From assembly GCA_001775395.1 (NCBI GenBank), contig MEWP01000130.1, forward strand, positions 74,921 through 138,920: a stretch of 64,000 nucleotides of DNA, given 5' to 3'. This stretch comes from a candidate division Zixibacteria bacterium RBG_16_53_22. Its GTDB lineage: Bacteria; Zixibacteria; MSB-5A5; UBA10806. Each line of letters opens with the position of its first letter. Within the stretch, counting starts at the first letter, position 1. Below are positions 3,020 to 64,000 of this stretch, piece after piece. The position numbers and the translations under genes are program-made. Below the pieces are notes generated by a model, which had not been told where the DNA came from, did no database searches, and saw only the letters and a list, made by a program, of their open reading frames with translations.

Positions 3020-3151
3020 AGTTGTCCTCCGATGTTTATGCAGTCTTTATAGCAAATGAATATCTATCTGACAAGGGATTTATGCCTTGTGCCCCAGTTT
3101 GGTATTATTTCCTTGCGAATTTAAGATAATTTATCTTAAATAGGACACGCC

Positions 3152-3856: not shown

Positions 3857-4021
3857 GGGAAATATTGAAAATCACGATGCCGGTTTCAATTGCTGGTATC
3901 CATCAGGATGACGCCTGACCGACCCTTCCATTCTGATGGAACAGGATAGTTGAACTCGGCTGCATTGAAAATTCGACCATGGCGCTAAATAATATCAGGA
4001 AACAAAATAGGAGGAACCACA

Positions 4022-5122: not shown

Positions 5123-5308
5123 CTTAATGATATCTTTGGGGTGATTAATTCAGAGGAAAGGAATTGCGTATCGCGATTGGCTAACAGGTTTTTGTAGAAG
5201 AGCGGAATAACTTAAGAATGCATTTTTGCGCTACATTGACCTGATAGCTTTTGTGCTATTTCCGGGCGAATTTACGCCTGGAAATTGAATCGTCGATATG
5301 GAGGCCCG

Positions 5309-9298: not shown

Positions 9299-9354
9299 GC
9301 CTGACGATGATACCATCGACCTATTATTTGATTTCAATATCTGGAGGAACGAAA

Positions 9355-11934: not shown

Positions 11935-11937
11935 TAA

Positions 11938-14900
11938 GTGCTTGGACGAAGCGCTCTCATTCTTTGGGCAGCGACCGCTTCTTTTCTGATACAACCACAG
12001 GTATCGGCTGACGGGAAGATCATCAAGCCGATTGGCCGTGAGACGATTGAGCCCCCGGCCCAAATCGGCGAATTCGTATCCGATGTCTCCCGGAGAAACC
12101 TGCTCGGCCTCGAAAGACCGACTCCCTTCTCGCTTCCAACCTCCAAGCGTGGCGTATCGCTGGCCGAGGCTGTCCAGGAGGATACGATCCGTGTTCTCGC
12201 GCTCAAGGTTGAATTCCTGACTGAGACTCCGGACAACGGCAAGACCACCGGCAACGGCAATTTCGACCTGCGCACATATGAGGAATTTCAAGCTCAAGAG
12301 GGGCATTATATCGACCCCGCGCCGCATAACTCCGCCTATTTCAATTCGCACCTCGATGCGCTAAATCGCTATTGGCAATCGGTCTCGGATGGTAAACTCA
12401 GCCTCAACTGGGACATCTATCCTCAAATCGAGGACGAGGCTTTCAGGCTTCCGGTATCGATGTCATACTATGGCTCCGAAGGCCCATGGGCCGATTCGTC
12501 TGTCGGTGACAAACTCGGCCACTTTTTCATCGATGCCATCCATTTCGCCGATTCTGCCGCGCCGGAAATAAATTTCGCCGATTTCCAGGCTATCATCGTC
12601 TTTCACGCCGGCTCGGACCAGCAAAACAATATCGCTTTCATCGATGATACTCCGGATGATTTCTGGACCGGCTTTCTGCGCCTGGCCGAACCGCTGGAAG
12701 TCGATGGCGGCTCCGCGTCAGTAATTGATGGCACCATCATGCCGGAGACGGTCAATCAGGATAATCGCCTTAACGCCCTCAACGCCGTCATGGCACATGA
12801 ATTCGGTCATCAGTTGGGATTGGTCGACCTCTACCAGACGCGCAATTTCCTGACACAGATAGGCGATTTCTCGCTCATGGACAACAACGGCATGTCGGTC
12901 GGGGTGATAATCGATGATAACTTCCCGTCGGTGGGCGGCACGATCCCGGTCTACCCCGACGCCTGGTCGCGAGCCTACTTGGGATTCGATATCCCCCGCG
13001 AGGTAACGCTGGGCGATAATGAGCCGGTCTTTGCGGCGGCGCTGCAGCATTCCGATAACGAAATCATCAAGGTGCCGATTACGGAATTCGAATATTTCCT
13101 GGTCGAGAACAGACAGATCGATGCCGATACTCTCGAACCTGGCTTCCCATTCGACAACGTCCTGATCGGCGACCCGCAGACGACTGTTATCCTGGGGCCG
13201 GGCTATGCCTATTTCCAGGGGAATGACACGATTCTGGTTACCGACGCCGAATACGACCGCCTTCTGCCCGGCAATGGCATGCTCATCTTCCATGTCGACG
13301 AATCCGTGGCATATATGAATGAGATGCCCGAGTATGGCCCGAATAATTTTTGGAATAACACGCTTCAGTGGCAGCCGAGCCGGCGTTTCGTGTCGCTGGT
13401 CGAGGCCGATGGTATCATCGATTTTGGAGGCAACTACTATACCGGATTCGGCAGCCAGGCCGATATGTTCAGGCGATTCTATAACTCGCAATTTACGCCC
13501 TTTACAAGTCCTTCGTCACATTCGAATCTCGGCGCCGATACCCATATCTCGATCACAGATATCTCAAGTTCCGATACTATGATGACATCCGATATCAGAA
13601 TCGACTGGTTTATGCCAGGCTGGCCCCAGATGAGTATCCCGGGAAGCGCCAGCGATCCGGTGGTGGCTGATTTGGATGGCGATGACAGCCTCGAGGTCAT
13701 CATGGCCTCCGGTAATCAGCTTCTCATATGGCGTCATGACGGCAGCAAATTCATACCCAACTCCGATTCGATTGGAATTTTAAGATTCGACAGCAGCATC
13801 GCAATCTACCCGCTGGCCGTGGCCGCGGAGTGCGATACAGATATTGTCGGCAGACCGGTGATTTTCCAAGCGGATTCCCCCGCCCCTGACGTCGACGCGC
13901 CCGAGATAGCGGTATCAACAATATCGGGAAGGTTATATGTTTTTGGCATAAATGACGGAAATGGGGATGGCAGAATCGACCCCCTTCCGCTGACCCCCAT
14001 CGAGAATGTGACAACATCGATGGCAGGGCCGATCGCGGCAAATTTCTGGAGCCCACTGGCCGATCAACTAATCACAATAGACAATGAGGGAAGGGTCCAT
14101 CAAATCAGTTGGGGCTATTCCCTCGCTATCCCCATAGACTCGGTGGTTTACAGTTTCGGGGGGCCCGCAGTTCCGGCCTGCGCGTATACCACTGGCGAGA
14201 TGGACCATCTGCAGGTATTAAGGTTAATGCTCGGTGGCCCACCGAGGTTAGTGACGCTCGAGGCCGCAAGCGGAAGCCTTGAATTTAGTGAGACGTCGGT
14301 GCAGGCGGTCCACGCCACTGCCCTCGTCGCGGGCGACTTGTTGCGAGCCGGTTCCGGTGAGCAGGTCGTAGCCACGGATATTGATGAAATCACCCTCGTG
14401 GGCGAAGACGGTCTTGTTATCTGGAGGCGGCAAATCGACAGCCTCAGCGGCCATCCTGCGTTGGGCGATATCAACTCCGACGGCTATCCCGAGATCGTGG
14501 TCGTCGGCGATTCGAAGATTCTTGCCTTCAATCGCGAGGGGGCTTTGCTCTCCGATTTCCCAATAAACCTGCACCTTTATGATTTGAACGGCCTGATCGA
14601 GGCTTCCCCCGTCCTGGCTGATGTCGACTCCGACGGCAATCCCGATATAATTGTGGGACTTCCCGGCGGCGCGGTCTACGCTTTCAACTACCGGGGTGAC
14701 AGGTTAGCAGGATTCCCGCTGCCAACCTCGTTTGGAATAACCAGAGCCGCCGCTGTTGGAGACTTGAATAATGATGGCCAGACCGACCTGCTTGCCGTTG
14801 AAAGCGTCGGCTTCGTGAAAGCCTGGGACATTGGAACAGCGTTTAACTCCCAAAACGCTCCCTGGCCAATGGCCGGCGGCGATGCCAAGAATAGCGGCTA

Positions 14901-15222
14901 CCTGGCGGCGCAATTTCAGAAACCGGTTATGACCACCGACGAGCAACTTCCCGAAAACTCGGTATTCTGTTACCCCAATCCGGCGAAAAATTCGACTACG
15001 ATCAGGTATTACCTGAATAGCGATTCCCAGGTAAGTATCGATATTTATGATTACCTTGGCGAGCGCATACACAAAGCAAATCTCGTGGGTCAGGCCCACG
15101 CCGATAATGAATATGTCTGGAACTGCTCGGATGCGGCATCGGGTGTCTACTATTGCCATATCCAGGCCACGAATGCCGCACGCGAGGTTTGGCGGATGAT
15201 TAAAATTGCGGTCGTGAATTAA
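11938..15222 (+). CDS. M6-family (immune inhibitor A-like) zinc metalloprotease with FG-GAP/VCBS repeats and T9SS type-A C-terminal sorting domain (GTG start)
   Basis: 'MAHEFGHQLGLVDLYQT' matches the M6 HExxHxLGLPDLY zinc-binding signature; FG-GAP-like repeats 'GDINSDGYPEIVVVG', 'ADVDSDGNPDIIVG', 'GDLNNDGQTDLLAV'; C-terminal 'ENSVFCYPNPAKNSTTIRYYL...GVYYCHIQATNAA...IAVVN' CTD. Confidence 0.85.
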   Translation: MLGRSALILWAATASFLIQPQVSADGKIIKPIGRETIEPPAQIGEFVSDVSRRNLLGLERPTPFSLPTSKRGVSLAEAVQEDTIRVLALKVEFLTETPDNGKTTGNGNFDLRTYEEFQAQEGHYIDPAPHNSAYFNSHLDALNRYWQSVSDGKLSLNWDIYPQIEDEAFRLPVSMSYYGSEGPWADSSVGDKLGHFFIDAIHFADSAAPEINFADFQAIIVFHAGSDQQNNIAFIDDTPDDFWTGFLRLAEPLEVDGGSASVIDGTIMPETVNQDNRLNALNAVMAHEFGHQLGLVDLYQTRNFLTQIGDFSLMDNNGMSVGVIIDDNFPSVGGTIPVYPDAWSRAYLGFDIPREVTLGDNEPVFAAALQHSDNEIIKVPITEFEYFLVENRQIDADTLEPGFPFDNVLIGDPQTTVILGPGYAYFQGNDTILVTDAEYDRLLPGNGMLIFHVDESVAYMNEMPEYGPNNFWNNTLQWQPSRRFVSLVEADGIIDFGGNYYTGFGSQADMFRRFYNSQFTPFTSPSSHSNLGADTHISITDISSSDTMMTSDIRIDWFMPGWPQMSIPGSASDPVVADLDGDDSLEVIMASGNQLLIWRHDGSKFIPNSDSIGILRFDSSIAIYPLAVAAECDTDIVGRPVIFQADSPAPDVDAPEIAVSTISGRLYVFGINDGNGDGRIDPLPLTPIENVTTSMAGPIAANFWSPLADQLITIDNEGRVHQISWGYSLAIPIDSVVYSFGGPAVPACAYTTGEMDHLQVLRLMLGGPPRLVTLEAASGSLEFSETSVQAVHATALVAGDLLRAGSGEQVVATDIDEITLVGEDGLVIWRRQIDSLSGHPALGDINSDGYPEIVVVGDSKILAFNREGALLSDFPINLHLYDLNGLIEASPVLADVDSDGNPDIIVGLPGGAVYAFNYRGDRLAGFPLPTSFGITRAAAVGDLNNDGQTDLLAVESVGFVKAWDIGTAFNSQNAPWPMAGGDAKNSGYLAAQFQKPVMTTDEQLPENSVFCYPNPAKNSTTIRYYLNSDSQVSIDIYDYLGERIHKANLVGQAHADNEYVWNCSDAASGVYYCHIQATNAAREVWRMIKIAVVN

Positions 15223-17987: not shown

Positions 17988-18169
17988 GATGCTTATTAAT
18001 GATGCGGTGGCTTTTCAGGTGGTGTCCGGTCTTCTCTTCGAGCCTGCTGTCGACCTTGAGGGCCGTCAGGCCCGATGGGATGGCCCTTCAGCGCCTCAAC
18101 GACAGAACTGATATTTCAGATCCCTCGTCTCAGCCGGGCCCTCCGCGGAAGGCGAATTCATGGCGGCGC

Positions 18170-21100
18170 ATGATCTATCTCCCCTGTCTTATTCTCCTCG
18201 TCACCCTTCAATCATACGCTCAGGCGCCTGATACCAGCATTACAATCCATGGTGGCGGGACGCGCGGCCCATACCAGCTTGGATTCCACAATCTGGTCAC
18301 CGGCTCGATCTCGCTTTTAAGAAACGGCGCGGTCGTTGAGTCAAATGCCTATACCGTGCAGACCGCCGATGGTATCATCAATCTGAATGAGCCGCTCGGC
18401 CTGAATGACTCAATCCTCGTCAGATTTCAATACATTCCGTTGAATCTAAGATCGCAATATTCGATTCATGCCCTCTCGTCCGAAAACAAGATTCCCGCTA
18501 TCGAGCCGGCCGAGCCCGGATCGTTCCGAGGTTTCGGCTCCGATCTCAAAGTCACCGGCAGCAAGGGATTTTCAGTGCAGACCGATGACGGCACTGCCGG
18601 CGGCCTTTCCCAATCGCTGAATCTGTCGATTTCCGGGGAGCTGGCGCCTGGCCTGAGAACCTCCGCCAATGTCTCGGACAAGTCAAATGCTGTCACCGGG
18701 GCTACGCGCCGCCTGAATGAGCTTGATAAAATATATGTTGTGGCTGAATCGGACCATTTCAAAGGCATTTTCGGGGATTTCGATATCGAACAACGACGCG
18801 ATCCCTTGCTTGGCTATCAAAGAAAACTAACCGGCTTGAATGTGCTATATTCGAAACACGGCAACACTATCACCGGCGCGGCGGCGTTCTTTCCCGGCGA
18901 ATTTAGAGCGATCACGATCAACGGACGCGATGGCCGATTGGGACCATATTATTTAACCGATATAGGCGGCCGCCAGGCAGCGTTGGTCCTTCCCGGCTCA
19001 GAGCGAGTTTATATCGATGGCGCGCTCCAGAGTCGTGGCCCGCAAAACGACTATGAGATCGATTACGAGACCGGCACATTCCAGTTTTCGCCATCGAAAG
19101 TGATCCGCGACGAAACCAGGATCACGATCGACTACGAGGTCGCCAGGGAGGAATACAGCCGTGGTTTCTACACTGCCTCGGGCGACGGCAGCCCCGTACG
19201 GGGACTGAGATTCTTTTCGAGTCTTATCCAGGAGGGTGACAACAGAAACTCCCCGAAGAGTTTCGAACTGACTCCGGAGGCGCGGCAAATTCTCGAGCAG
19301 GCCGGGTCTGACAGGTTGCGGGCGGCCCGCAGCGGAGTACAATTTGTCGGGCCCGGCGCCGGAGATTATGATCTCGATTCCACAGTAACGGTCCATTACG
19401 TATACGCCGGGGTCAACCAGGGAAGCTATGATGTCGCATTCTCATTCATCGGCCAGCGGCTTGGGTCATACAGAGCGCTGGGCGGCGGAATTTTTGAATA
19501 TGCCGGCCAGGGTTTGGCAGACTACGAGCCGGTGATCCTCATCCCAATTCCGGAGACAAGGCGCTACGGCTCGGCCGGCGCGGATTGGCGCTCGCCCGAC
19601 AGCGCAATCGCGATCGGAGGAGAGATGGCCGGCTCCCTTTATGACCGCAATACTCTCTCCAGCCACGATAGCCGTCTTAACGATTTAACATTTCTTGGTT
19701 CCGGCGCCTACAGGCGAAACCTGCTCGGAGGATTTATCGGAATCAAGGCTCTTGGGCGGGCGATCGGCAATAACGCCATCTTCCCGGGACGGATCGACGA
19801 CGTCGAACGCTTCCGGAACTACGACCTCGATAGCCAGGCCTCGCCAAACGGCGAACGCGTGCGGGAAATAGAGCTAACCGGCGGGCTTACTAACGACCGG
19901 CAAATAATGATTGAATTGGGTCATCTCACTAAACCGGGCATCACCAGCCGTGGCCGTCAGGCCGCCAACGCCGGTTGGAGGCTCTTCTCGCCTTTCGATA
20001 TCGTCTCCTCGGTGGAACGCACGCGTGGCGACAGGACGTGGTGGAAATCCATGAATGCCATCAGGGCCGCATTCGAATTTGCTCAGCCCTCATTAGGCTT
20101 GAATTTTGAACGTCGCGACGGTGTTGCGGGATTCAAATACTACGAGTACATAGCACGCATTCCGGCGAATTATGCGCGCGATATATCCGGAGCAACCGAG
20201 GTAACTGTCCGCGATGAGAAATTCCTCGATACCGGCTGGCGAGACAAGTTTATGTCTGGCGCGCTTCAGCAGAGAGTCACTTTCCTGATTGCCGGGACTG
20301 GCTTTTCGGGGGACGCCGCTCTCTCATATTATCGAAAAGACTATAAGGATTTTGCCGGGACCGATACCGAGCAAAAAACCGGCTGGACACGTCTCAGTTA
20401 TTCCGATCCCTCGGGCCGGGGCAGCCTGACTATCGGTGAGCGGCTGGGATCATCCAATGAAAGGCTACAGGCGAAAAATTATGTATTTATCGGCGACGGC
20501 CGGGGCGAGTACAGGCTCGAGGACGGCGAATACATCCGCGACCCTCAGGGCGATTATACGCTGATCATCGAGGAACTCGGCGAGGGCGCCAGGATATCTG
20601 AGATCGGGACCGAGATCGATGCCAGTGTCTCGCCCCTCTTGCTGCTCAACAATACCCCAGCAATTGAACAGAAGGCGGGGCGGCTCAGTGTCGAGGCTAA
20701 CCTTGATTACTCCCTGAGGAAATCGTCCGACCGTCTGATTGCCAGGGATTTTATGCCCTGGAAATTCACAGGCCTCGAAAATGTCGCTTTCCAAATTGGC
20801 GAGCTGAAAATGAGGGCATATTACTATCCTGCGATGCGCGACCACCGCATAAAATATAATTTCTCGCGAGCTTTTGAAAATGGAAGCCAATTTGCCAATG
20901 AGCAGAATGACAACATATCGAGGACCGACGAACTTTCATGGGCATTCCCGGCCGGGAAGAAGATCGATCTCATTATCACCGGCCTTTTGGCGCAAACCAG
21001 GCGCTCGATCAATACACTGAAATACACTGTCGACAGGAAGAGCCTCGGCGCTCTGGCGAATTACCATTTCGCGCGGCAGTGGACACTCTCGGCCGGTCCG

Positions 21101-21427
21101 TCTTTCGAGAGGTCCCGGCAAAGCGATATCGGCCTGCGCGCCGACATGCCGGCTTTAGAATTCGGACTGGCGCGCGACCTCGAGAAATCGGGGCGAATCT
21201 CCACCCGCCTCATCTATACGCGTCTTAACGCCAATCCGCTTGATTCCTACGTGCCGTTCCAGGTTGCCCGAGGCAGAGGCAATGGCGACAATTTTGAGGC
21301 TATTATTTCGGCCCGGATGCCGGTCACCAAAAACGGCCGCTTTGATCTCTCCTACAGGCACGAGAGTTTCGCTCACCGCCCGCAGACAAATAACCTTCGC
21401 CTGGAATTCACGGTGCTGTTCCTATGA
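18170..21427 (+). CDS. Large (about 1085 aa mature) secreted/outer-membrane protein of unknown function, C-terminal beta-strand signature '...LRLEFTVLFL'; possible TamB/AsmA-like partner of downstream Omp85 gene (speculative). Track start 17999; signal peptide begins at ATG 18170
   Basis: Signal peptide 'MIYLPCLILLVTLQSYAQA'; long beta-rich sequence, terminal aromatic; stop overlaps start of Omp85 gene (ATGA at 21424-21427). Confidence 0.55.
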   Translation: MIYLPCLILLVTLQSYAQAPDTSITIHGGGTRGPYQLGFHNLVTGSISLLRNGAVVESNAYTVQTADGIINLNEPLGLNDSILVRFQYIPLNLRSQYSIHALSSENKIPAIEPAEPGSFRGFGSDLKVTGSKGFSVQTDDGTAGGLSQSLNLSISGELAPGLRTSANVSDKSNAVTGATRRLNELDKIYVVAESDHFKGIFGDFDIEQRRDPLLGYQRKLTGLNVLYSKHGNTITGAAAFFPGEFRAITINGRDGRLGPYYLTDIGGRQAALVLPGSERVYIDGALQSRGPQNDYEIDYETGTFQFSPSKVIRDETRITIDYEVAREEYSRGFYTASGDGSPVRGLRFFSSLIQEGDNRNSPKSFELTPEARQILEQAGSDRLRAARSGVQFVGPGAGDYDLDSTVTVHYVYAGVNQGSYDVAFSFIGQRLGSYRALGGGIFEYAGQGLADYEPVILIPIPETRRYGSAGADWRSPDSAIAIGGEMAGSLYDRNTLSSHDSRLNDLTFLGSGAYRRNLLGGFIGIKALGRAIGNNAIFPGRIDDVERFRNYDLDSQASPNGERVREIELTGGLTNDRQIMIELGHLTKPGITSRGRQAANAGWRLFSPFDIVSSVERTRGDRTWWKSMNAIRAAFEFAQPSLGLNFERRDGVAGFKYYEYIARIPANYARDISGATEVTVRDEKFLDTGWRDKFMSGALQQRVTFLIAGTGFSGDAALSYYRKDYKDFAGTDTEQKTGWTRLSYSDPSGRGSLTIGERLGSSNERLQAKNYVFIGDGRGEYRLEDGEYIRDPQGDYTLIIEELGEGARISEIGTEIDASVSPLLLLNNTPAIEQKAGRLSVEANLDYSLRKSSDRLIARDFMPWKFTGLENVAFQIGELKMRAYYYPAMRDHRIKYNFSRAFENGSQFANEQNDNISRTDELSWAFPAGKKIDLIITGLLAQTRRSINTLKYTVDRKSLGALANYHFARQWTLSAGPSFERSRQSDIGLRADMPALEFGLARDLEKSGRISTRLIYTRLNANPLDSYVPFQVARGRGNGDNFEAIISARMPVTKNGRFDLSYRHESFAHRPQTNNLRLEFTVLFL

Positions 21428-50967: not shown

Positions 50968-52422
50968 TTAGTCCATGGTCCTGTAATTAGGCGCCTCCTT
51001 CATGATCTTGACATCATGGGGGTGGCTCTCGCGGAGCCCCGCGCCCGTGATACGCAAAAATCTGGCTTTCGATTTGAGGGTAGCTATATCTTTGGCGCCG
51101 CAGATACCCATGCCGGCCCTCAGGCCACCCATAAGCTGAAACACCGAATCGGCCACCGAACCCTTGAACGGCACCCTCCCCACTATACCCTCAGGCACCA
51201 TCTTGCCCGATTCGGTCTGTTGGAAATACCTGTCGGCGCTCCCCTTTCGCATCGACTCGATCGAACCCATCCCCTGATAAACCTTGTAAGAGCGACCCTC
51301 GATGAGTATGGTTTCGCCGGGCGATTCCTCGGTCCCGGCCAAAAGCGAGCCAATCATGACAGAATCGGCCCCGGCTGCCAGAGCCTTGGTGATATCCCCT
51401 GAGTATTTGATTCCGCCATCGGCGACCAGCGGGACATTATGTTTCTGGCAGACCGGCGCGCAATCCATGATTGCAGTGATCTGCGGGATTCCGGCTCCGG
51501 TAACGACCCTGGTGGTGCAGATCGATCCCGGGCCGATTCCGACCTTGACCGCTGAAACGCCGGCCGAAATCAGGTCCGCGGCGCCCTCGGCGGTGCCGAC
51601 ATTGCCTCCCATAATATCGATATTCGAGAACTTCGCGCGCAGCTTTTCTATCGCCGTGATGACACCCTCGGAGTGGCCATGCGATGAATCAATCGCGATA
51701 AGGTCTGCGCCAGCCTCGATAAGAGCCTGGGCGCGATCGAGCATGTCGCCGGTCACCCCTACCGCCGCCCCCACCCGCAGGCGCCCGCGCTGGTCCTTGC
51801 AGGCGTTGGGATATTGGATCCGTTTCATGATATCCTTGACAGTAATCATCCCCTTGAGATTACCCTCGGAGTCGACTATGAGGAGCTTTTCGATCCGATG
51901 TTTGTGCAGAAGCTCCTTGGCGCTTTCGAGGTCAGTACCCTCGGTGACAGTGATAAGATTGTCCTTAGTCATTACATCGGAGATGGGCACCGCGGGGTTG
52001 TTATGAAATCTCAGGTCGCGATTGGTGAGGATACCTACCAGTTTTCCTTGGCGGGTTATTGGTATGCCGGAAATTGAGAATTTTTTCATGGTCTCCAGGG
52101 CCTGGCCCAGGGGAGCGTCGGGGGGAAGCGTGATGGGATCAACAATCATGCCCGATTCGGAGCGCTTGACCTTGTCGATTTCGAATGCCTGTTCCTGGAT
52201 CGAGAGATTCTTATGAACAATGCCGACCCCGCCCTGCCGCGCCAGCGCGATTGCCAATGCCGATTCGGTGACGGTGTCCATGGCCGCGGAGACCAGCGGA
52301 ATATTCATGGCGATGTTCCTGGTCAAACTGGTGCCAAGGCCTATCTGGTGAGGCAGGACCGATGACTTGGCTGGAATCAGTAGAACATCGTCAAACGTTA
52401 AAGCCTCTCTAATAGGTTCCAT
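50968..52422 (-). CDS. guaB: Inosine-5'-monophosphate dehydrogenase with CBS pair
   Basis: '[16 protein letters not shown]', CBS region, '[11 protein letters not shown]' catalytic loop, '[12 protein letters not shown]'. Confidence 0.95.
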
Positions 52423-53387: not shown

Positions 53388-53464
53388 TGGTGGGCAATAC
53401 TGGACTCGAACCAGTGACCTTTCGGATGTGAACCGAACGCTCTAACCAACTGAGCTAATCGCCC
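53388..53464 (-). tRNA. tRNA-Val (anticodon CAC), CCA encoded
   Basis: Reverse complement GGGCGATTAGCTCAGTTGGTTAGAGCGTTCGGTTCACATCCGAAAGGTCACTGGTTCGAGTCCAGTATTGCCCACCA folds as cloverleaf; anticodon loop TTCACAT. Confidence 0.85.
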
Positions 53465-53484
53465 ATTACCAATTAGCTAAAACA

Positions 53485-53558
53485 TGGGCCCACCAGGGCT
53501 CGAACCTGGGACCCACAGATTATGAGTCTGTTGCTCTAACCAACTGAGCTATGGGCCC
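53485..53558 (-). tRNA. tRNA-Met (anticodon CAT; elongator Met or Ile2-lysidine type, not initiator-like), no encoded CCA
   Basis: Reverse complement GGGCCCATAGCTCAGTTGGTTAGAGCAACAGACTCATAATCTGTGGGTCCCAGGTTCGAGCCCTGGTGGGCCCA; anticodon stem ACAGA/TCTGT lacks the 3 GC pairs of initiator tRNA. Confidence 0.8.
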
Positions 53559-53915: not shown

Positions 53916-55031
53916 TCAACTGCAAGCGACTCGAACACGCTGGTCGTACTTGAGCAAGATCAAGAGAGCATAATAGGTTATCCATTTCGAGGGTTTGCCC
54001 TTTTCTTCTATCTCGACCCACATCTTGTTGTTGAGAGAGAATTCCAGATTCCAACGGCCGTCCGGCTTCATCTTGCCTCGTATGGCATTTATGGCGTCGT
54101 CCATGCGCGGATCATATTCTATATTGGCCTCTAACAACGAGCGCATCGCTTCGAGAACGTCGGAATTGTAGTCCAGGGGAAAGCCGAAACGCAGCCATAT
54201 GTCCTTTGGATTATTATCCTCGCCCGGCCTCCTGAATTTCTCTCTTTCCTTCAAGAGAGCTTCGGCAATCGCCGATCTCGTTTCAGATTGCAGGGACGCC
54301 CGTCGAATTTTCCTCTCGCGACTTTTTTTATAATCAATCCATTCCTTTTGAAGCTTGGGAACGTAAAAATAAACGCGTTTATCCAGAAGCTGCCTTACGC
54401 AAATGTCCTTGGCCCGCTCGATTATCGGATTGGCCTCGGGATATTTGGCGAGCGCCATCAATACTTTGGGCAGCGCCAAATGACATTTCGGAACCAATGA
54501 GAATTCGACATCTCTGCAATCTATACCCTCATGTCTGATTATGGATCTGCCGATATTTTCGATAATCCCCTTCACCCTGATATCCAAATTGTATCCCAGG
54601 TTGGCAAGCCCTCTCGATATATTGGCCATCAAACACGCCCAGCCGGTGCTTTCCTTGGCAAGGGCCTCCTGCCAGGTTTGATCGTTCAAAATGTATTCGC
54701 ATCCATCTCTGATAGCCGGTTCGCCGCCATCGGCATTCAAGTCGCCGAGAAATATTATCTGCCAATACCCTCCTTTGTATTTTCGATATAGCCTCGTGTC
54801 GCTCTTCCAGAATATATCCCGCTTTCTGAGTATTCCCTGGATAGCGGGATAGGAATTCAGCTTGCTTCTCTCTTCTACCAGGTTTTCCTCCGGCATCATC
54901 AAGATATTCTTCATTGTGAGGTATCTGACAGGTGGATTATCCCTCTGGCAAAGCCAGTCGACTACTTCGGACGGGATCGACACAATGCCGTCCACCTGTC
55001 TAATCCCGTTCTTAAGGCGCGCTATTTTCAT
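53916..55031 (-). CDS. Hypothetical protein (no family recognised); probable start at internal ATG 55031 preceded by GAGGAGGAG (track start 55112 is TTG)
   Basis: Long ORF with good coding character; strong SD 6 nt upstream of internal ATG; 16-nt overlap with bioY end. Confidence 0.45.
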   Translation of the reverse strand: MKIARLKNGIRQVDGIVSIPSEVVDWLCQRDNPPVRYLTMKNILMMPEENLVEERSKLNSYPAIQGILRKRDIFWKSDTRLYRKYKGGYWQIIFLGDLNADGGEPAIRDGCEYILNDQTWQEALAKESTGWACLMANISRGLANLGYNLDIRVKGIIENIGRSIIRHEGIDCRDVEFSLVPKCHLALPKVLMALAKYPEANPIIERAKDICVRQLLDKRVYFYVPKLQKEWIDYKKSRERKIRRASLQSETRSAIAEALLKEREKFRRPGEDNNPKDIWLRFGFPLDYNSDVLEAMRSLLEANIEYDPRMDDAINAIRGKMKPDGRWNLEFSLNNKMWVEIEEKGKPSKWITYYALLILLKYDQRVRVACS

Positions 55032-55045
55032 ACGAATTCTCCTCC

Positions 55046-55690
55046 TCAACACCCGATTTTGCCGAAATTGGCTGGGCGCCCTTTTCGACAATGATAGATA
55101 AGGCTTGAACAAAATGATATTTTTAATAAATCGTGAAAAACAAACGGCAACGCCCCGAGCCGGAGCAGATCCGGAACCGATGGATCAACCCCATTGATAT
55201 TGGCTACCCACGCGCGCAATTGAATCAAGCCGGGGATATAAATTAAAATGAAATTGGCGGCCGAGGTTGTTACCACTATTTTCAACACCGTTGGCTTCCT
55301 CATCCGATGAAATGCCTCTCCCATAAAAAGCGCCGCCAGGACGAATCCGATTAGGTAACCCGAGGTGGGACCCGAAAATACGGCCAGGCCCCCTTTCCAT
55401 TCGCTGAACCAGGGAATACCGCCAACGCCCCCGACCAGGTAAATCAACTGGCTTACTCCTCCCCACCATCTTCCCAACAAGTATCCCGATACAAGGACAG
55501 CGATCGTCTGCCCGGTCAACGGCACGGGAGTCCACGGAAGCTGCACGCGAATTTGCGCAAGCGCCCCTGTCATAATGGCCATGAAAAAGGCATAATAGAG
55601 ACATCGGTGAATACCGGCGGTTCTTGTTTGGCCGCCGATAAGTCTCGCTCCAAACTCATTATCGCAGCAGATTCGGCCGTTATACCTCAT
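55046..55690 (-). CDS. bioY: BioY-family biotin transporter (ECF S-component-like)
   Basis: 'LPWTPVPLTGQTIAVLVSGYLLG', 'GGIPWF..GGLAVFSGPTSGYLIGFVLAALFMG' typical BioY; start may be at a later Met. Confidence 0.8.
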   Translation of the reverse strand: MRYNGRICCDNEFGARLIGGQTRTAGIHRCLYYAFFMAIMTGALAQIRVQLPWTPVPLTGQTIAVLVSGYLLGRWWGGVSQLIYLVGGVGGIPWFSEWKGGLAVFSGPTSGYLIGFVLAALFMGEAFHRMRKPTVLKIVVTTSAANFILIYIPGLIQLRAWVANINGVDPSVPDLLRLGALPFVFHDLLKISFCSSLIYHCRKGRPANFGKIGC

Positions 55691-57440: not shown

Positions 57441-57716
57441 TCATTGTATTGGCGGGCAGTCCTCGCACCATCGCAGCGCCGGCTGTACCTGCTTGAGATA
57501 GGCCACGTAGTAGGTGATATCGACCCCGTTAAACCTGCAGTCCCCATTGACATCGCCGGCCGCAAAGAACGGGTCTGTCACCCAGGTGCAGGGTGGAACG
57601 CAATCGACCAGCGGTTGATTGGCGCCTTTGAAATAGGCTACCCCATAAGTAACGTCAAGACCATTGGCGCGCCCATCGTCGTTTATATCTCCTACAATGT
57701 AGTCACAGCCTGCAGG
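57441..57716 (-). repeat. Copy 1 of a roughly 270-nt conserved 3'-terminal gene segment (Cys-rich dockerin-like module), roughly 80-85% nt identity among copies (by eye); coordinates approximate
   Basis: Compare 57470-57540 with 59010-59070 and 60860-60930 (e.g. 'cttgagataggccacgtagtaggtgatatcgaccccgtt'). Confidence 0.7.
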
Positions 57717-58760
57717 CGGCCAGCCTCCTCTTCGAGTATATAAAACGGTCCCGGAATCACCCACCGCGTAGGCAATGCCGGGGCTGAGCATTTTCACGCG
57801 ACGCAGGGTCACGGTGGTGCCGCTCTCCTGCAAAGTCCAGTTCTCTCCCCCGTTGGTCGTGGCCACTATGGTCCCGTTCTGCCCCACTGCCAGGCCTGTC
57901 ATGTTATCGAAAAACGAAACCCCACAGAGCGCATCGCCAGTATTGCTTCTCTGATTCTCCCAGGTTTCGCCCGTGTCGGTCGACCTGTATATCATCCCGA
58001 AATCGCCGACCACGTAAACCATGTCAATCGAGGGGCAATCAACGCCATATAGCGAGTGATCGTCAACCCAATAGACTGTCGGCCACGAATATGCGCCATC
58101 CGTAGTGCGAGCGATGGCGCCGTCCCCGTCCAGGATACCGGCCGCGATGAATCCTGTGTACGAATCGGCAAATGCCATATCATTCGGAAAGCCCGGATCA
58201 TCGTGTCCGTCAGCCTCATGGCGGTAGTCGAAAAGCGATGCCTGCGCATATTCCCAACCCCAATAAGTGGTCAAGACCCTTGACATGGTATGGATAGTGT
58301 TGCCTGACATAAATCCATCGGTTGCGTTGTACATTCTTATTCTTGTGGCGCTCGTCATCGTGTCCACTCTGATAAGCGTCCAGGTCGTTCCGCCGTCGTA
58401 AGTTCGTATTGTCGCTGGAAATGCGTCAATGTAGCTGTTACCGATCGCAAAAGAAGTGTCGGGATTGACCATGCTGATATCCTTCAAACAGAGTGACGGC
58501 GAGTTGGCCTGCATCGTCCACGTTCGGCCGGAATCAGTGGTGTGGAGAATGATATTCGAATCTCCGACCACAAAACCGCTCGAAAACTCGCAAAAATCCA
58601 ATGACAGCAGATTTTGAGTTGTGCCGCTTGTCTGCCTGTGCCATCCGCTCTGGGCATACGACATCAAGAAAGGAATGATAGCGATAATGATCATCAGCGA
58701 CGCCGTCCTGCGGATCTGATTAATGGAAATTATCTTGGAAAAGCTCGTCGGAGTTTTCAT
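57441..58760 (-). CDS. Secreted BNR/Asp-box beta-propeller (Ycf48-like) protein with conserved Cys-rich dockerin-like C-terminal module
   Basis: Signal peptide; Asp-box repeats 'TTDSGRTWT','TYDGGTTWT','STDTGETWE','TTNGGENWT'; C-terminus 'GCDYIVGDINDDGRANGLDVTYGVAYFKG...VDCVPPC...GDVNGDCRFNGVDITYYVAYLK...RWCEDCPP'. Confidence 0.8.
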   Translation of the reverse strand: MKTPTSFSKIISINQIRRTASLMIIIAIIPFLMSYAQSGWHRQTSGTTQNLLSLDFCEFSSGFVVGDSNIILHTTDSGRTWTMQANSPSLCLKDISMVNPDTSFAIGNSYIDAFPATIRTYDGGTTWTLIRVDTMTSATRIRMYNATDGFMSGNTIHTMSRVLTTYWGWEYAQASLFDYRHEADGHDDPGFPNDMAFADSYTGFIAAGILDGDGAIARTTDGAYSWPTVYWVDDHSLYGVDCPSIDMVYVVGDFGMIYRSTDTGETWENQRSNTGDALCGVSFFDNMTGLAVGQNGTIVATTNGGENWTLQESGTTVTLRRVKMLSPGIAYAVGDSGTVLYTRRGGWPPAGCDYIVGDINDDGRANGLDVTYGVAYFKGANQPLVDCVPPCTWVTDPFFAAGDVNGDCRFNGVDITYYVAYLKQVQPALRWCEDCPPIQ

Positions 58761-58970
58761 AACTGACTCCTCTTCAAATGATTTTTGGACTGCATTTTAA
58801 GGTTGGTGTTTTCATCTTGACTTTCGCCAGCGGCCCCCTCCATATAAGTGCCCCTGGCTTGGCGCCCCCTTCGATTGGTTCATGACGATTCCTCTCCGGC
58901 TGTCCGTCGTCGAAAATCGCCGTGATTTTAGATTGCGATGATGAGCTCGCGACGCGCAAACTCATAAGTC

Positions 58971-59250
58971 TCATCTAACCCCGGTTGGCGGACAGTCGGC
59001 ACACCACCGTAGCCTCGGCTGCAGCCCCTTGAGGTAGGCCACGTAGCAAGTGAGATCGATCCCATTGAACCGGCAGCCGCCATTTACATCACCGGGCGCA
59101 TAAAACGGCGAGAGCTGTGGGCAGGGGCCGTCAGGCGCGCCGCAGTCGACAGCGGGAACAGCGCCCCCCTTGAAAAAAGAAATCCCATATAAAATATCGA
59201 TCCCGTTGGAGCTCCCGTCGCCATTGATATCGCCCACCGTATATTCACAG
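58971..59250 (-). repeat. Copy 2 of conserved 3'-terminal gene segment (coordinates approximate)
   Basis: As above. Confidence 0.7.
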
Positions 59251-60266
59251 CCCAGGGGAGGCCGGCCACCTGTATTGGTATAGAGGATTGTCCCGGAATC
59301 GCCTACTACATAAGCCACATCGGGGCTTAACATCTGCACCCTTCTCAACGATCGGGACGCCCCACTCTCTTGCCTCGACCAGTTTAATCCGGCGTCGGTG
59401 GTGCTAATTATGGTCCCGGCCTCCCCCACCGCTAATCCGACCAAATTATTTGCAAATGAGATCGCATAAAGGGTATCATCGATGCCGCTCCATAGACTTT
59501 CCCAGCTTTCACCCTGGTCAGTCGACCGATAAATCGCTCCAGACATCCCTGCGACGAAAATGGTATCATGTGACGGGCAATCGACAGCAAAGAGCAGGAC
59601 GTCGTCACACCAGAAATTGGTCGACCATGTGATCCCGCCATCGTCGCAACGACCGACAGCTCCGTCGCCATCCCATATGCCCGCCGCAATAAACCCGAGC
59701 ATGCTGTCGGAGAATGCCCTGTCAAATGATATGCTTTCGTCATAATGCCCTTCGGGATCAAGGAACTCGAAATTTGTGACCTCTAAAGTACCCCAGCCAT
59801 CGCAGGTCCTCAAGACACGGGTACCAAAAAAACCCGAGTTACCTGAAATAAATCCCTTCATCGCGCTGCACATTCTTATTCGAGTGAAACTCGCCATCAT
59901 TTCCTGATAAATAACAGCCCAGGCGTTTCCACCATCGTTGGTCCTGATAATCGTGGCATAAAACGGGTCGACACTCATCATTCCTATGGCAAACAGAGTG
60001 TCCGGACCCGCCGAGCAGATATCCTTGAGAGATAGGAAAGGAACGGTGGTCTGCGCCACCCAGGTTTCGCCCGAGTCGGTGGTATGGAGGATGATATTTG
60101 AATCCCCGACCACAGTTCCGGTCGTCAGCTCTGTGAATTTCAACGAATTTAATGTATGCGAGGTACCGCTGACCTGGCGATGCCAACCCTGCTGGGCAAG
60201 CGGGGCCGCCGTGGGAATGAAAATAATCATACCCGCTGACAAGATGGCGCCTATGAGAATATTCAT
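58971..60266 (-). CDS. Paralogous secreted BNR/Ycf48-like beta-propeller protein with the same Cys-rich dockerin-like C-terminal module
   Basis: Signal peptide; 'TTDSGETWV','TNDGGNAWA','STDQGESWE','TTDAGLNWS'; C-terminus 'GCEYTVGDINGDGSSNGIDILYGISFFKG...VDC...GDVNGGCRFNGIDLTCYVAYLK...RWCADCPP'. Confidence 0.8.
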   Translation of the reverse strand: MNILIGAILSAGMIIFIPTAAPLAQQGWHRQVSGTSHTLNSLKFTELTTGTVVGDSNIILHTTDSGETWVAQTTVPFLSLKDICSAGPDTLFAIGMMSVDPFYATIIRTNDGGNAWAVIYQEMMASFTRIRMCSAMKGFISGNSGFFGTRVLRTCDGWGTLEVTNFEFLDPEGHYDESISFDRAFSDSMLGFIAAGIWDGDGAVGRCDDGGITWSTNFWCDDVLLFAVDCPSHDTIFVAGMSGAIYRSTDQGESWESLWSGIDDTLYAISFANNLVGLAVGEAGTIISTTDAGLNWSRQESGASRSLRRVQMLSPDVAYVVGDSGTILYTNTGGRPPLGCEYTVGDINGDGSSNGIDILYGISFFKGGAVPAVDCGAPDGPCPQLSPFYAPGDVNGGCRFNGIDLTCYVAYLKGLQPRLRWCADCPPTGVR

Positions 60267-60745
60267 GCGTCCCCAATGTTCATCAGCCGCCGAGAAATTC
60301 GTATGATATTCCCCCCCCGAATCTCCTCCACAGGTATTTCCGCCTTTCCATCGTGATCTTCCACCTCTTAATTGCCTTGGCCGAGGATTATCTCAGGCTG
60401 CTCGACAACGACCCTATCATCATAGCTTGCGAAATCCACCTAAAGATGCTCCCCGGTGCTTTATGCATCGTGCCGTTGAATCGTCGCTCACTTGATAATT
60501 TCTGCCTCATCGAGCAGCCTTTTCACCTGATTTCCTTGTTGTCAATTCGTTTACATCGCTCGTTCTATTGCCTGTCGATTATGTTTCGTACTCTACGTCA
60601 ATATCGCCTCCTTTGGTGTACCCGTCGGATGATATCAGCAACCTTGAATAACCCTCTCCTTCAGATACATGCCATTTTCCTGCCCCGGCCTTGCTGTCAA
60701 GACCGGGGCTGCCAACCAATCAAAAGGAGACTCGCATGCGCGAAG

Positions 60746-63700
60746 TCATTTTGAATCAAGGCCCCCTCGCCTTTCAAGCTGGCGAGGCTCCGGCCTCACT
60801 TTGGTAATTTCGTCGGTCCTGATTCTCTCGAAAGCCCCCGCTGGTGGGCAGTCCTCACACCACCGAAGCATCGGCTGCAGGCTCTTGAGATAGGCTACGT
60901 AGTAAGTGATATCTATCCCGTTGAATCGGCAGTCGCCATTGACATCGCCGGCCCCATAGAAAGGATCCGGGACCCCTATACATGGCGGAACGCAGTCGAC
61001 CGGCGGCAGATTGCCGCCCTTGAAGTAGGCCACCCCGAACGTAACATCGATGCCATTGGCATGCCCCTCTCCGTTGATATCCCCCGGGACATATATACAG
61101 CCTGTTGCCACTTCAAATTCGACCGGAACCGTGAATTCCGGAGTATTATGGTCGTTTGAATAGATGCGCAAATTCCCAAAATACGATCCTTCAGGCAAAT
61201 CGGCCGCGTCCATATGAACGGTTATGGGCAATGGAGGATCGTCGCCGGCGAGTTCCCCTTCATTTATGTCAATGGATAGCCATGGCGCCTGAGTATCGAT
61301 CCGGAGACAATACCTCTTCGGGCATGGAGAGCCGCTCCAGAATATGGGCCTGACCAAAAGCCAGTAGCTGCCAGGCCGGAGAATAAGGCCGATTCTGGCC
61401 GTATCGCAGGCCTCGGCGCTGGCCGAGCCGATAATTTGATAATCTTGACAGTTTCCCGACCCAACATCGAATAGAGTCATCATTGCAGGAAGGTCCGCCA
61501 CCAACTTGCAGTTTATATTCGAAAAGGAAGTCAGTGTAAAATTATACCAGTCATTATCCACCCAGGCATCATCGAACGTTCCCGTCCGGCCGCTGAGCCA
61601 TCGCCCAAGTTCGATATCGGAAAAAACAGGTGGAATCGCGTAACAACCAGCGTTGAAGTGAGCGATGTATCCCGGGCCGCAATCCGGTTCTCCCTCTATA
61701 GCGGAATTAGGAGGAATCTCCACCGTGCAGAGTGACGAATGTATTATGTTGAGTGAGTAGTCGCCCGCGGCATCGTCAAAGCCATCCACAACGATGTAAT
61801 AGGTATTGCCCGGTCTGACGATAAGGTCGTTGATTTCGGATAACGAATTGCCGCATCCGTCGTCATCGCACGCCACCGGATTGGACACGACATTTTCGAA
61901 AACATATATGCGCGAATCCCATTCATACGGAGTCGAACAGAGACCAACGCTCAAAGTTTCTTCCCGAGAAGGGCTGTACGCATAGACGACATCGGGCGCG
62001 CCATTATCAATCCCGCAGGATCCCTGATAGTCATCGAGATATGCAACCGTAGTCCCCTCGTCGGAATAAGGAATAGAGGCTATCGGCGTCGCAGTGGAGA
62101 TATCATCTCCGCCCTGCATGAGCTTGGAGGCTCCGGCTTGATTCCCGGCCGTGACTGCGGCCTTTCCATTCTTGCCTTTTGCGGGCCGCGTGGAGACTGA
62201 CGATATCGGCAACTGCGTTTGATCGACAACGATCCGAAAATCCAAAATTCCTCCGCCGGTATTGTCGATAGCAAGGATTTCATCATCGTATCCTCCCGGG
62301 CGCGCCGACCCGTTTATTGCTGAAGGTGTAACGGCCAGACTTGGAGTGCCAATCTGACAGTCGACAAACGCCACATAACTCCTGGGGCAGGGCCAGGCGG
62401 CGCAGGAGGTGGGAGAAATCCAGAGCCAATAAACTCCTGCCTCCACTTCGGCGGAGACTTCCGCCGTATCGCATGGTAGATTATTCGCCATGCTTATTAC
62501 TTCGAAATCAGAGCAGTCTTCGGAACCGGCGTCGATAAGGCATATCGATACGGGGAAACCGGCAACCGCCTTCCAATTGATGAGCCCCTGGCTCGCTATC
62601 TGAATCCTATACCAATCGGTGTCACGGAGGTAATTGCCGGCCGACTCATAGGTGCCGCTTTCTCCGTATACGATATCGCCGGGGTCAATCGACTGAAAAA
62701 TAGCCGGCTCGGAATTGCAGCCGCCGTTATAAATGTCGATATAATCGGGCCCGCAATTTTCCTCGCCCTCGTTAATCGCCGAGGGCGGGGCAACTACTTC
62801 GCACGCCGGGGCGTCATAAATATCCAGCCGATATTCCCCGCACGCGCCCATAAATCCGTCGACAACGATATAGTAAACGCCGGGATCGAGAATTCCCCTG
62901 ACCTCCGACTGGCTTCCGCACCCTTCATCGTCATATAGAAATTCCGTCGAGGGGCCGGAACAGCAGATTTCCCGATACACCGCCAGTTTGGTGTCGTAGC
63001 TGGAGGCGCAAAGCGACATCACCAGACTCTTCTGCTGCGATATATTCAATTGATAAATAATATCCCGGCTGTCGGGAGCCTCCAGGGCGCACTGGTCCGT
63101 GAATTGACAGGAATTTCCCGAATCGCTGAATGGTATCTGATCGATAGGAAATGGATCATCGCACCAGTCGCCCGGCCGCAGGGGAGACGCTGCTTGTATG
63201 ATCAGATTGAATTCCGATATGCAATAAGGTTCGGGCCAGCTGTCTATCATGATGTAGTAGGTCCCCGCCTGGAGCAAAAGCGATTCGAAACCATAAGGGT
63301 CGCCACTCCCATCACCGGCCTCGGCTATGCAAGACGAAAGACTGGGGGGGAAAGAATTATCGATTAACATGCCTGTCCACTGGGTTCCCAGCGGATCTAT
63401 GCTGATGTCAAGCAACACCTGGCTGGCGACATCAAGTTCATAGACGATCTCCTCTCCTTCGTCATATCCGCCAAGGCAGGTGCGATGCAGGTCGTTTCCC
63501 TTTCCGCACGTGGTCTGGAAACTGTCCGCATAAGGCAATTGATCCGGCAGGTCAATTTGAATGTCGGGGGTGAGCGAGAATGGCGCCGTCCCGATGCTGG
63601 CGACGTAGTCACGCGGGCACGCCCAGCCGGAGAACTCCCACGGCCCGATCCAGAGCCAATAGACGCCCGGCTCGACCAGCGCCGTCACCGATATCGAATC

Positions 63701-64000
63701 GCACGACACGGAACTTCTCATTTCGAGTTCTTGCCAATCCTGGCAATCTTCGGAACCCGCGTCCATTATGCATATCAGCGGGTGGAAATCGGCGATCACA
63801 CTCCAGGTCAATAAGCTTCTGCTGTCGATTTGAATTCTATACCAGTCGGTATCCCTGTATTCTTCGCCGTTAAAAATATAGGTTCCGCTCGTTCCGAATA
63901 TGATATCTCCGCTGTTTACATCCTGGAAAACAGGGGGAACGGAATAACAGCCGCCATTATGAGTGTCGATATATTCCAGTCCGCAATCAGGCTCGCCCTC
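60746..64000 (-). CDS. Giant secreted protein (over 1084 aa, N-terminus beyond window edge) built of repeated PPC (pre-peptidase C-terminal)-like Cys-containing modules, ending in the same Cys-rich dockerin-like module
   Basis: Reading frame open to 64000 (track start 63811 is an internal TTG); repeats 'RDTDWYRIQIASQGLINWKAVAGFPVSICLIDAGSEDCSDFE...GVYWLWISP...PCPRSY' (at least 3 copies, DxDWY PPC-like motif); C-terminus 'GDINGEGHANGIDVTFGVAYFKGG...VDCVPPC...GDVNGDCRFNGIDITYYVAYLK...RWCEDCPP'. Confidence 0.75.
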   Translation of the reverse strand, partial: EGEPDCGLEYIDTHNGGCYSVPPVFQDVNSGDIIFGTSGTYIFNGEEYRDTDWYRIQIDSRSLLTWSVIADFHPLICIMDAGSEDCQDWQELEMRSSVSCDSISVTALVEPGVYWLWIGPWEFSGWACPRDYVASIGTAPFSLTPDIQIDLPDQLPYADSFQTTCGKGNDLHRTCLGGYDEGEEIVYELDVASQVLLDISIDPLGTQWTGMLIDNSFPPSLSSCIAEAGDGSGDPYGFESLLLQAGTYYIMIDSWPEPYCISEFNLIIQAASPLRPGDWCDDPFPIDQIPFSDSGNSCQFTDQCALEAPDSRDIIYQLNISQQKSLVMSLCASSYDTKLAVYREICCSGPSTEFLYDDEGCGSQSEVRGILDPGVYYIVVDGFMGACGEYRLDIYDAPACEVVAPPSAINEGEENCGPDYIDIYNGGCNSEPAIFQSIDPGDIVYGESGTYESAGNYLRDTDWYRIQIASQGLINWKAVAGFPVSICLIDAGSEDCSDFEVISMANNLPCDTAEVSAEVEAGVYWLWISPTSCAAWPCPRSYVAFVDCQIGTPSLAVTPSAINGSARPGGYDDEILAIDNTGGGILDFRIVVDQTQLPISSVSTRPAKGKNGKAAVTAGNQAGASKLMQGGDDISTATPIASIPYSDEGTTVAYLDDYQGSCGIDNGAPDVVYAYSPSREETLSVGLCSTPYEWDSRIYVFENVVSNPVACDDDGCGNSLSEINDLIVRPGNTYYIVVDGFDDAAGDYSLNIIHSSLCTVEIPPNSAIEGEPDCGPGYIAHFNAGCYAIPPVFSDIELGRWLSGRTGTFDDAWVDNDWYNFTLTSFSNINCKLVADLPAMMTLFDVGSGNCQDYQIIGSASAEACDTARIGLILRPGSYWLLVRPIFWSGSPCPKRYCLRIDTQAPWLSIDINEGELAGDDPPLPITVHMDAADLPEGSYFGNLRIYSNDHNTPEFTVPVEFEVATGCIYVPGDINGEGHANGIDVTFGVAYFKGGNLPPVDCVPPCIGVPDPFYGAGDVNGDCRFNGIDITYYVAYLKSLQPMLRWCEDCPPAGAFERIRTDEITKVRPEPRQLERRGGLDSK
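60840..61110 (-). repeat. Copy 3 of conserved gene segment (followed by a 31-aa unique tail in this gene; coordinates approximate)
   Basis: As above. Confidence 0.7.

Follow-up and report, generated by a model that had tools for sequence, protein, structure and literature searches.

A cysteine-rich, dockerin-like C-terminal module on secreted proteins of Zixibacteria and a candidate cohesin-fold partner domain

Three adjacent genes with a common C-terminal module

The window analyzed in this study is a 64-kb stretch of DNA from the candidate division Zixibacteria bacterium RBG_16_53_22. At its end lie three adjacent genes, designated here as A, B, and C, which encode secreted proteins with the same cysteine-rich module of 87–89 aa at or near the C-terminus. 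All three open reading frames (ORFs) are on the minus strand, and their translations agree with the original prediction, made from the sequence alone, that three neighboring secreted proteins carry a common module. The features, as assigned from the ORFs, translations, and Pfam, are as follows.

57441–58760, minus strand: gene A, 439 aa; signal peptide, BNR/Ycf48-like beta-propeller, and C-terminal cysteine-rich dockerin-like module
57450–57710, minus strand: module of A, 87 aa, ending 2 residues before the stop codon
58971–60266, minus strand: gene B, 431 aa; signal peptide, propeller, and module; paralog of A
58986–59252, minus strand: module of B, 89 aa
60746–64000 (open-ended), minus strand: gene C, a large repeat protein with a PPC domain, the module, and then a 31-aa tail
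60842–61102, minus strand: module of C, 87 aa
60749–60841, minus strand: charged 31-aa tail of gene C after the module, AGAFERIRTDEITKVRPEPRQLERRGGLDSK

The N-termini of A and B have signal-peptide-like segments. The reading frame of gene C is open up to base 64000 (the ORF listed within the window is 60746–63811, and the frame continues), and the gene is therefore 5'-truncated at the window end, encoding more than 1084 aa with its N-terminus outside. The domain types had been named correctly as two propellers and one PPC protein: the PSII_BNR model of Pfam, which represents BNR/Ycf48-type propellers, matches A with 68.3 bits and B with 59 bits, and C has a PPC domain with 27.1 bits. The view that the N-terminal domains of the three proteins differ is valid for C compared with A and B; A and B themselves are paralogous over their whole length (54% identity, E-value of 2e-117). 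Internal repeats of gene C are rich in conserved Cys and Trp residues, as in "...IDAGSEDC.D...C....V.A.VE.GVYWLWI.P....W.CPR.YV". The boundary of the window truncates one such repeat, and the PPC threshold of Pfam is reached by a single repeat region.

The consensus string proposed earlier for the module is accurate against the alignment of the three copies. Their pairwise identities are 65–77% at the protein level and 70–76% at the DNA level, the latter being lower than the 80–85% that had been estimated by eye. Identity at third codon positions is 53–59%, which indicates no special nucleotide-level conservation and led us to reject recent gene conversion among the three modules. Six cysteine positions are common to all three copies. 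The module of B has a seventh cysteine, together with a 2-residue insertion in the cysteine linker and Gly instead of Asp at position 5 of the second loop.

Sequence and predicted fold of the module

Each half of the module follows the pattern D-x-N-x-(D/N/S)-x-x-x-N-G-(I/L)-D, continued by a helix with (V/I)-T-Y-x-V-x-Y-(F/L)-K-G. This combination of loop and helix corresponds to the EF-hand-like repeat of dockerins. Two calcium loops are present in all three modules of the window, as tandem segments of approximately 22 residues with a 12-residue loop and a helix. In 87 modules, the calcium ligands D1, N3, and D12 are conserved at 98–100% and N9 at 95%, and position 5 is mostly D, N, or S, in agreement with the dockerin-like nature noted previously. 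The helix faces of both repeats (NG[IL]D[VI]TY.V.Y[FL]KG) also show strong conservation.

The only domain-level Pfam match of the modules is Dockerin_1 (PF00404), which lies right at the threshold. When the modules were compared alone, the scores were 25.8 (A), 22.0 (B), and 22.6 (C) bits against a gathering score of 22.9, and within the full-length proteins they were 19.2, 16.9, and 15.7 bits, respectively. Across the family described below, 18 of 73 representatives match Dockerin_1 at E ≤ 0.001. A profile built from the three modules found clostridial dockerins as its best matches among Protein Data Bank (PDB) sequences, with E-values of 6e-4 and weaker.

The AlphaFold2 model of the module of C (m6a3e2aacab14; window positions 60827–61117, calculated from 76 family sequences) has a predicted local distance difference test score (pLDDT) of 92 and a predicted template modeling score (pTM) of 0.82, with two helices at residues 22–32 and 67–77. 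In a Foldseek search of the PDB, the top 32 matches were all dockerin chains, taken from cohesin–dockerin complexes or isolated dockerins. The first 31 matches have target-normalized TM-scores of 0.56–0.82, and the 32nd is a 25-column fragment with an E-value of 4.3. As far as a predicted model allows, the assignment of the dockerin fold is firm. Thrombospondin type-3-like calcium repeats were considered and rejected, as there was no Pfam hit to them and the fold matches dockerins exclusively.

The module is most likely a divergent, cysteine-stapled, type-I-like dockerin with two EF-hand-like calcium loops, a longer cysteine-containing linker, and a terminal CxxCPP. Because Dockerin_1 already reaches the module at threshold, it represents a divergent subfamily of a known domain rather than a new fold. 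The novelty claimed for it in the original prediction accordingly applies to the six-cysteine subfamily and not to the fold.

Six conserved cysteines

The first cysteine (C1) is located three residues before loop 1, and C2 and C3 are in the linker between the repeats with a spacing of 1, 2, 3, or 5. C4 occupies position 6 of loop 2, which is normally Gly in EF-hand loops, and C5 and C6 belong to the C-terminal CxxCPP. In a census of 252 near-full-length module copies, each of the six positions is occupied by cysteine in 88–98% of the copies, and all six are present together in 206, so that the cysteine pattern is conserved in the homologues as well. More distant relatives retain only C4 and one C-terminal cysteine.

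Where cysteines are missing, they tend to be missing in pairs: C1 with C2 in 9 copies, C3 with C6 in 6, and C4 with C5 in 4. This paired loss suggests three disulfide bonds (C1–C2, C3–C6, and C4–C5) rather than a four-cysteine metal site. A zinc-binding site of the CxnC...CxxC type is disfavored, since the spacing of the first pair varies (1, 2, 3, 5) and the paired losses cut across the two motifs.

Size of the family and its carriers

A search of 1.84 billion cluster representatives (clusters at 50% identity) with a hidden Markov model (HMM) of the module gave 3831 matches at E ≤ 1e-3, of which 1452 pass E ≤ 1e-10 and 634 pass E ≤ 1e-30. Ordinary dockerins are probably included at the most permissive of these cutoffs. 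A word-indexed homologue search, which returns mostly short proteins, found 112 relatives, several of which are named proteins from metagenome-assembled genomes (MAGs) of Candidatus Zixiibacteriota. Named matches to the module include ones from Zixibacteria and Ignavibacteria. A scan of contigs with narrow patterns (DVNG[DG]CRF and LRWC[EA]DCP) derived from the three-sequence alignment located 3 loci, in MAGs of Ignavibacteria and Bacteroidetes. The similarity of the modules clearly exceeds what chance would produce: against the family profile, those of the window score 117–125 bits with E-values of about 1e-35 (124.5 bits for A and 117.3 for B), values that are partly circular because the profile contains these three modules. 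Matches elsewhere are independent only for loci that were not fetched via the hits used for building the profile, as is the case for L001–L003.

A local duplication artefact or a chance similarity confined to these three genes would fit their adjacency and the clear paralogy of A and B. The 634 clusters at E ≤ 1e-30, from many metagenomes and MAGs, the named matches in Zixibacteria and Ignavibacteria, and the unrelated N-terminal architecture of gene C make such an explanation extremely improbable. The module therefore belongs to a wider family, as had been anticipated. Most of its members are labeled "hypothetical protein".

Architectures were counted in the 137 best representatives, in all of which at most 48 aa separate the end of the last module from the C-terminus. 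Carriers are between about 100 and 3594 aa long. Proteases also occur as carriers, namely subtilases (P0081 and P0235) and an M6 peptidase (locus L010). The other domains include CarboxypepD_reg, SdrD_B, Ig-like/BACON, beta-helix/NosD, LVIVD, FG-GAP, propellers, and InhA-like MAM domains. This repertoire is typical of exo-proteins.

Some members (P0007, P0012, P0019, P0027, and P0042) are mini-proteins that consist of a signal peptide and the module only, and genes for mini-proteins of about 110–130 aa occur in tandem at L007 (9104–10575) and L009 (9615–10333). At L010 (4318–5563 and 8146–10285), module genes are split into an upstream body and a module-only ORF that lacks a signal peptide (P0028 and P0017). 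These splits are likely to be frameshifts or assembly errors, in which case some "stand-alone" members in the databases are fragments.

About half of the carriers have a hydrophilic, Pro/Lys-rich tail of 9–48 aa after the module. Across the family, the tails are 0–48 aa long and contain no hydrophobic anchor. A loose motif, "(A/S)GLLAPPxPGxEPxPAVQPxxxPxLKxK", can be recognized in the tails; the charged 31-aa tail of gene C shows no clear fit to it.

A cohesin-fold domain fused to the module

Two kinds of candidate partner domain were found in proteins of this family. P0146 consists of a signal peptide, a Pfam Cohesin domain (PF00963) at residues 26–157 that covers the full length of the model (28.2 bits against a gathering score of 24.1), and the module. 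A second and more common domain of approximately 165 aa, with the start "..D.II.GNLD.SPI.A.PGDTV.IPIWVKNDE", lies between the modules of P0115, P0116, P0128, P0132, and others, and P0146 holds a cohesin variant different from this type. Six of the seven scanned carriers of the 165-aa type have no match to Pfam Cohesin, and in P0132 the match is partial with an E-value of 0.016; the best score of the type (P0116, P0128, P0132, and similar proteins) is 15.8 bits over part of the model. A profile of the domain gave 0 matches among PDB sequences, and the word-indexed search with the cohesin-like profile gave 3 matches.

The AlphaFold2 model of the 165-aa domain is all-beta with a pLDDT of 95.7 and a pTM of 0.90, and the top 47 PDB matches in Foldseek are type I, II, and III cohesins with E-values down to 1.5e-6. 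The domain is thus predicted to adopt the cohesin fold, a nine-stranded beta-sandwich jelly-roll. The relationship to cohesins was revealed only by fold comparison.

The 165-aa cohesin-fold domain is present in 28 of the 137 representatives, and two or three modules per protein occur in 22. All 25 non-terminal modules are followed downstream by a cohesin-fold domain after 11–34 residues, most often exactly 14, and this fixed spacing suggests a rigid dyad of dockerin module (Doc) and cohesin-fold domain (Coh). Typical architectures, in which SP denotes a signal peptide and X another region, are SP-Doc-Coh-Doc, X-Doc-Coh-Doc-Coh-Doc, Doc-Coh-Coh-Coh-Doc, and SP-Coh-Doc. Internal modules form a subtype with a mean score of 64 bits, and terminal modules, including the three of the window, score about 117–130 bits. 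Doc-Coh dyads were seen in P0113–P0133, L011 (1003–13078), L013, L014, L015 (2750–3949), and L018.

Genes for the fused proteins are clustered with one another and with mini-protein genes. L011 has three adjacent scaffoldin-like genes with Doc and Coh domains. At L015 and L016, the gene order is M3 peptidase, SP+Doc (124 aa), SP+Doc-Coh-Doc (399 aa), SP+Doc (120 aa), and phosphatidyltransferase; the Doc-Coh-Doc gene of L015 is located between the two mini-protein genes at 2322–4635. L015 is syntenic to L009, a locus on a 1.9-Mb contig that has two stand-alone module genes without the Doc-Coh-Doc gene, and the genes flanking L015 are 86% and 94% identical to those of L009. The RNase G and the large subunit of NiFe-hydrogenase encoded by L009 fall in clusters of at least 90% identity with NCBI proteins of "candidate division Zixibacteria". 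Zixibacteria therefore encode the candidate cohesin-fold partner, and its gene lies among genes for the module.

Relation to the type IX secretion system

The window also contains genes related to the type IX secretion system (T9SS), whose cargo proteins carry a C-terminal domain (CTD).

5285–9298, plus strand: PorU-like Peptidase_C25 with a FlgD_ig-like C-terminus
9148–11934, plus strand: PorV
11938–15222, plus strand: M6-peptidase/FG-GAP cargo with a canonical Por_Secre_tail CTD

As listed, the first two ORFs overlap by approximately 150 bases, and the start of PorV is probably further downstream. Type-A CTDs of the T9SS had been reported over 5309–15222; one cargo protein with Por_Secre_tail is indeed present there, while the remainder of the interval is occupied by the PorU-like peptidase and PorV. 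The genome also uses the classical T9SS CTD, and the cysteine-rich dockerin is a separate class of C-terminal module on similar proteins.

We considered whether the module could itself direct sorting or secretion from the C-terminus, in the manner of an exosortase- or sortase-like signal or an alternative T9SS CTD, and possibly be removed later. In favor of this reading, hundreds of unrelated signal-peptide proteins have it at or close to their C-terminus, the window contains porU and porV, and an M6 peptidase bears a T9SS CTD in the window and the module in L010. Position alone, however, is not indicative, since the dockerins of clostridial enzymes are typically C-terminal as well. No match at E ≤ 1 to NCBIfam, including its curated sorting-signal models, was found for A, B, C, or the module, and Por_Secre_tail (PF18962/TIGR04183) matches none of them. 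PEP-CTERM, LPXTG, and GlyGly-CTERM features are likewise absent from the module, with no model match and no hydrophobic stretch in the 0–48-aa tails; neither a hydrophobic anchor nor a basic tail is present. The predicted fold is an alpha-helical EF-hand pair, unlike the beta-sandwich of T9SS CTDs, and the earlier distinction between the module and all these signals was therefore correct. The proposal that it behaves as a C-terminal sorting tag is not supported, as copies also occur at N-terminal and internal positions, always shortly upstream of a cohesin-fold domain, and as free-standing mini-proteins. A sorting function is very unlikely.

Other features of the window

The remaining features that were noted in the window are as follows.

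50968–52422: GuaB, 100% identical to the protein of candidate division Zixibacteria bacterium RBG_16_53_22; the named relatives that follow are all from Zixibacteria
53388–53558, minus strand: adjacent tRNA-Val(CAC) and tRNA-Met(CAT) genes
17999–21427, plus strand: ORF of 1142 aa with no Pfam match at E ≤ 0.001
53916–55112, minus strand: ORF of 398 aa with no Pfam match at E ≤ 0.001

Proposed cohesin–dockerin system

Taken as a whole, the results favor a disulfide-rich dockerin variant of a non-cellulosomal cohesin–dockerin system over a sorting signal, and we assign this reading a probability of roughly 0.65. From the established sequence family, its conserved cysteines and calcium ligands, the predicted folds, the domain fusion, the gene clustering, and the Zixibacteria origin, the following scheme can be proposed. 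Proteins A, B, and C would be exported via Sec signal peptides. The module would fold around two Ca2+ ions, and the co-loss of cysteines points to the three disulfides C1–C2, C3–C6, and C4–C5 as putative locks, which may be a covalent version of the stabilizing terminal "clasp" of canonical dockerins (PMC3821032). The folded module would dock non-covalently on the cohesin-fold domains of scaffoldin-like proteins (Doc-Coh-Doc, Doc-Coh-Doc-Coh-Doc, and Coh-Doc). These proteins are probably encoded elsewhere in Zixibacteria genomes, and RBG_16_53_22 itself would have such a cohesin. Propellers, proteases, beta-helix enzymes, and Ig-repeat proteins could in this way be gathered into assemblies in the cell envelope or the extracellular space, which would operate alongside the T9SS, with porU and porV in the same window.

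Several observations weigh against this proposal. There is no cohesin-fold ORF in the 64-kb window, as the original prediction had also stated, nor in the 20-kb stretches around the module genes of two complete Zixibacteria genomes (CP070742.1 and CP070813.1; L005, L022, and L023). In the Doc-14 aa-Coh dyad, the two domains could pair with each other within one molecule, in which case the cohesin would not be a free socket. On the cohesin-bearing proteins that were inspected, neither a lipobox nor an SLH domain nor a T9SS CTD was seen. Counts of co-lost cysteines are low and sensitive to the alignment, and many dockerin-bearing genomes in the literature are without functional scaffoldins (PMC9012536).

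The lack of a cohesin in the window and in the 20-kb samples of the two complete genomes, and the frequency of non-cellulosomal dockerins without scaffoldins (PMC9012536), would also be expected if the module had no partner and were a calcium-binding, disulfide-stabilized domain with a structural role or a ligand of its own (for example, a cell-surface glycan, mineral, or polymer), with the cohesin fusion as a separate specialization in other lineages. Mini-proteins of a signal peptide and a module (P0007, P0012, P0027, and P0042) would be odd for a pure docking plug and fit this alternative as well. It is difficult to reconcile with the cohesin-fold fusion of all 25 non-terminal modules, with a Doc-Coh-Doc gene flanked by stand-alone module genes in a region that shares synteny with a Zixibacteria genome, and with helix faces that are conserved in both repeats, as for a conserved protein–protein interface. 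We regard the partner-less alternative as unlikely, though less so than a sorting function. The original prediction had pictured an undescribed display or attachment system; its cohesin–dockerin part has gained strength from the fusion and the clustering, and for surface attachment no anchoring element was identified.

Comparison with known systems

The type I dockerins of clostridial cellulosomes (PF00404; PDB 4fl4_A, 4dh2_D, and 5nrk_B) are about 60–70 aa long, in comparison with 87–89 aa for the module, whose approximately 20 additional residues come with a longer inter-repeat linker containing the CxnC motif and the terminal CxxCPP. Canonical dockerins have no conserved cysteines, whereas the module has six that are nearly invariant, one of which replaces Gly at position 6 of loop 2. 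Its host belongs to a diderm candidate phylum of the Fibrobacteres–Chlorobi–Bacteroidetes (FCB) group and not to the Firmicutes, and its cargo is not obviously cellulolytic.

Non-cellulosomal cohesin–dockerin systems have been described in Archaeoglobus fulgidus, in anaerobic methanotrophic (ANME) archaea, and in Ca. Stygibacter/Cloacimonadota (PMC9012536, PMC8542988). As in our case, dockerins of these systems are found on proteases, binding proteins, and other non-cellulase cargo of uncultured anaerobes, dockerin and cohesin are combined in scaffoldin-like proteins, and function is deduced from domains alone. They differ in that they were found with standard Pfam/InterPro models, while the main cohesin type described here escapes sequence search, and in that the dockerin described here is a putatively cysteine-stapled one. 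A Cloacimonadota scaffoldin was reported with a T9SS CTD anchor (PMC8542988); the cohesin-bearing proteins inspected here have none, and their C-terminal module leaves little room for it.

The dockerin of Ruminococcus flavefaciens ScaA has an "intramolecular clasp" in which contacts between the termini stabilize the calcium-bound fold (PMC3821032). The cysteine before loop 1 and the terminal CxxC of the module are in the same terminal regions. Known clasps are non-covalent (Trp–Pro stacking and others), while the stabilizers of the module would be disulfides, one of which would reach into a calcium loop. Neither a six-cysteine dockerin, nor a cysteine at the Gly position of an EF loop, nor a fixed Doc-Coh dyad is described in PMC8542988, PMC3821032, or PMC9012536, and the literature that was searched contains no paper connecting Zixibacteria with dockerins or cohesins.

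T9SS CTDs (PF18962/TIGR04183) resemble the module in being C-terminal units of approximately 70–100 aa on many unrelated secreted proteins of the FCB group; this genome has both, and both accompany similar catalytic domains, such as the M6 peptidase. Unlike the module, a helical EF-hand pair that also occurs N-terminally, internally, and alone, they are beta-sandwiches with a strictly C-terminal position. The CBM10-type dockerins of Neocallimastigomycota are also cysteine-rich, disulfide-bonded docking modules on secreted enzymes. Their fold of approximately 40 aa is unrelated and has no EF-hand loops, and Pfam gives no hit of the module to them at E ≤ 1.

Significance

The new elements are a large unnamed dockerin subfamily, a partner domain that has now come into view, and a scaffold of unusual architecture; no new principle is involved. 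A more far-reaching picture is that Zixibacteria and related FCB lineages build an extracellular lattice unrelated to cellulose. In such a lattice, the stapled dockerin 14 residues upstream of a cryptic cohesin would form Doc-Coh-Doc units that daisy-chain, dozens to hundreds of cargo proteins and mini-dockerins would be held in a matrix or surface layer beside the T9SS, and the disulfides would provide stability outside the cell. We consider this extension speculative and rather doubtful.

Zixibacteria are widespread uncultured bacteria of sediments and aquifers whose surface biology is essentially unknown. An unannotated dockerin subfamily of at least 634 clusters at 50% identity now gains a candidate socket that was overlooked by standard domain searches. 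For annotation, dedicated HMMs for the module and the cohesin-like domain would give thousands of hypothetical proteins a new name, and the disulfide-stapled dockerin and the compact Doc-Coh-Doc unit may serve as robust orthogonal parts for designer protein scaffolds. If the proposed system is real, it would extend cohesin–dockerin assembly to a diderm phylum with a T9SS and would offer a handle on how proteases, glycan-active propellers, and adhesin-like proteins are organized outside the cytoplasm.

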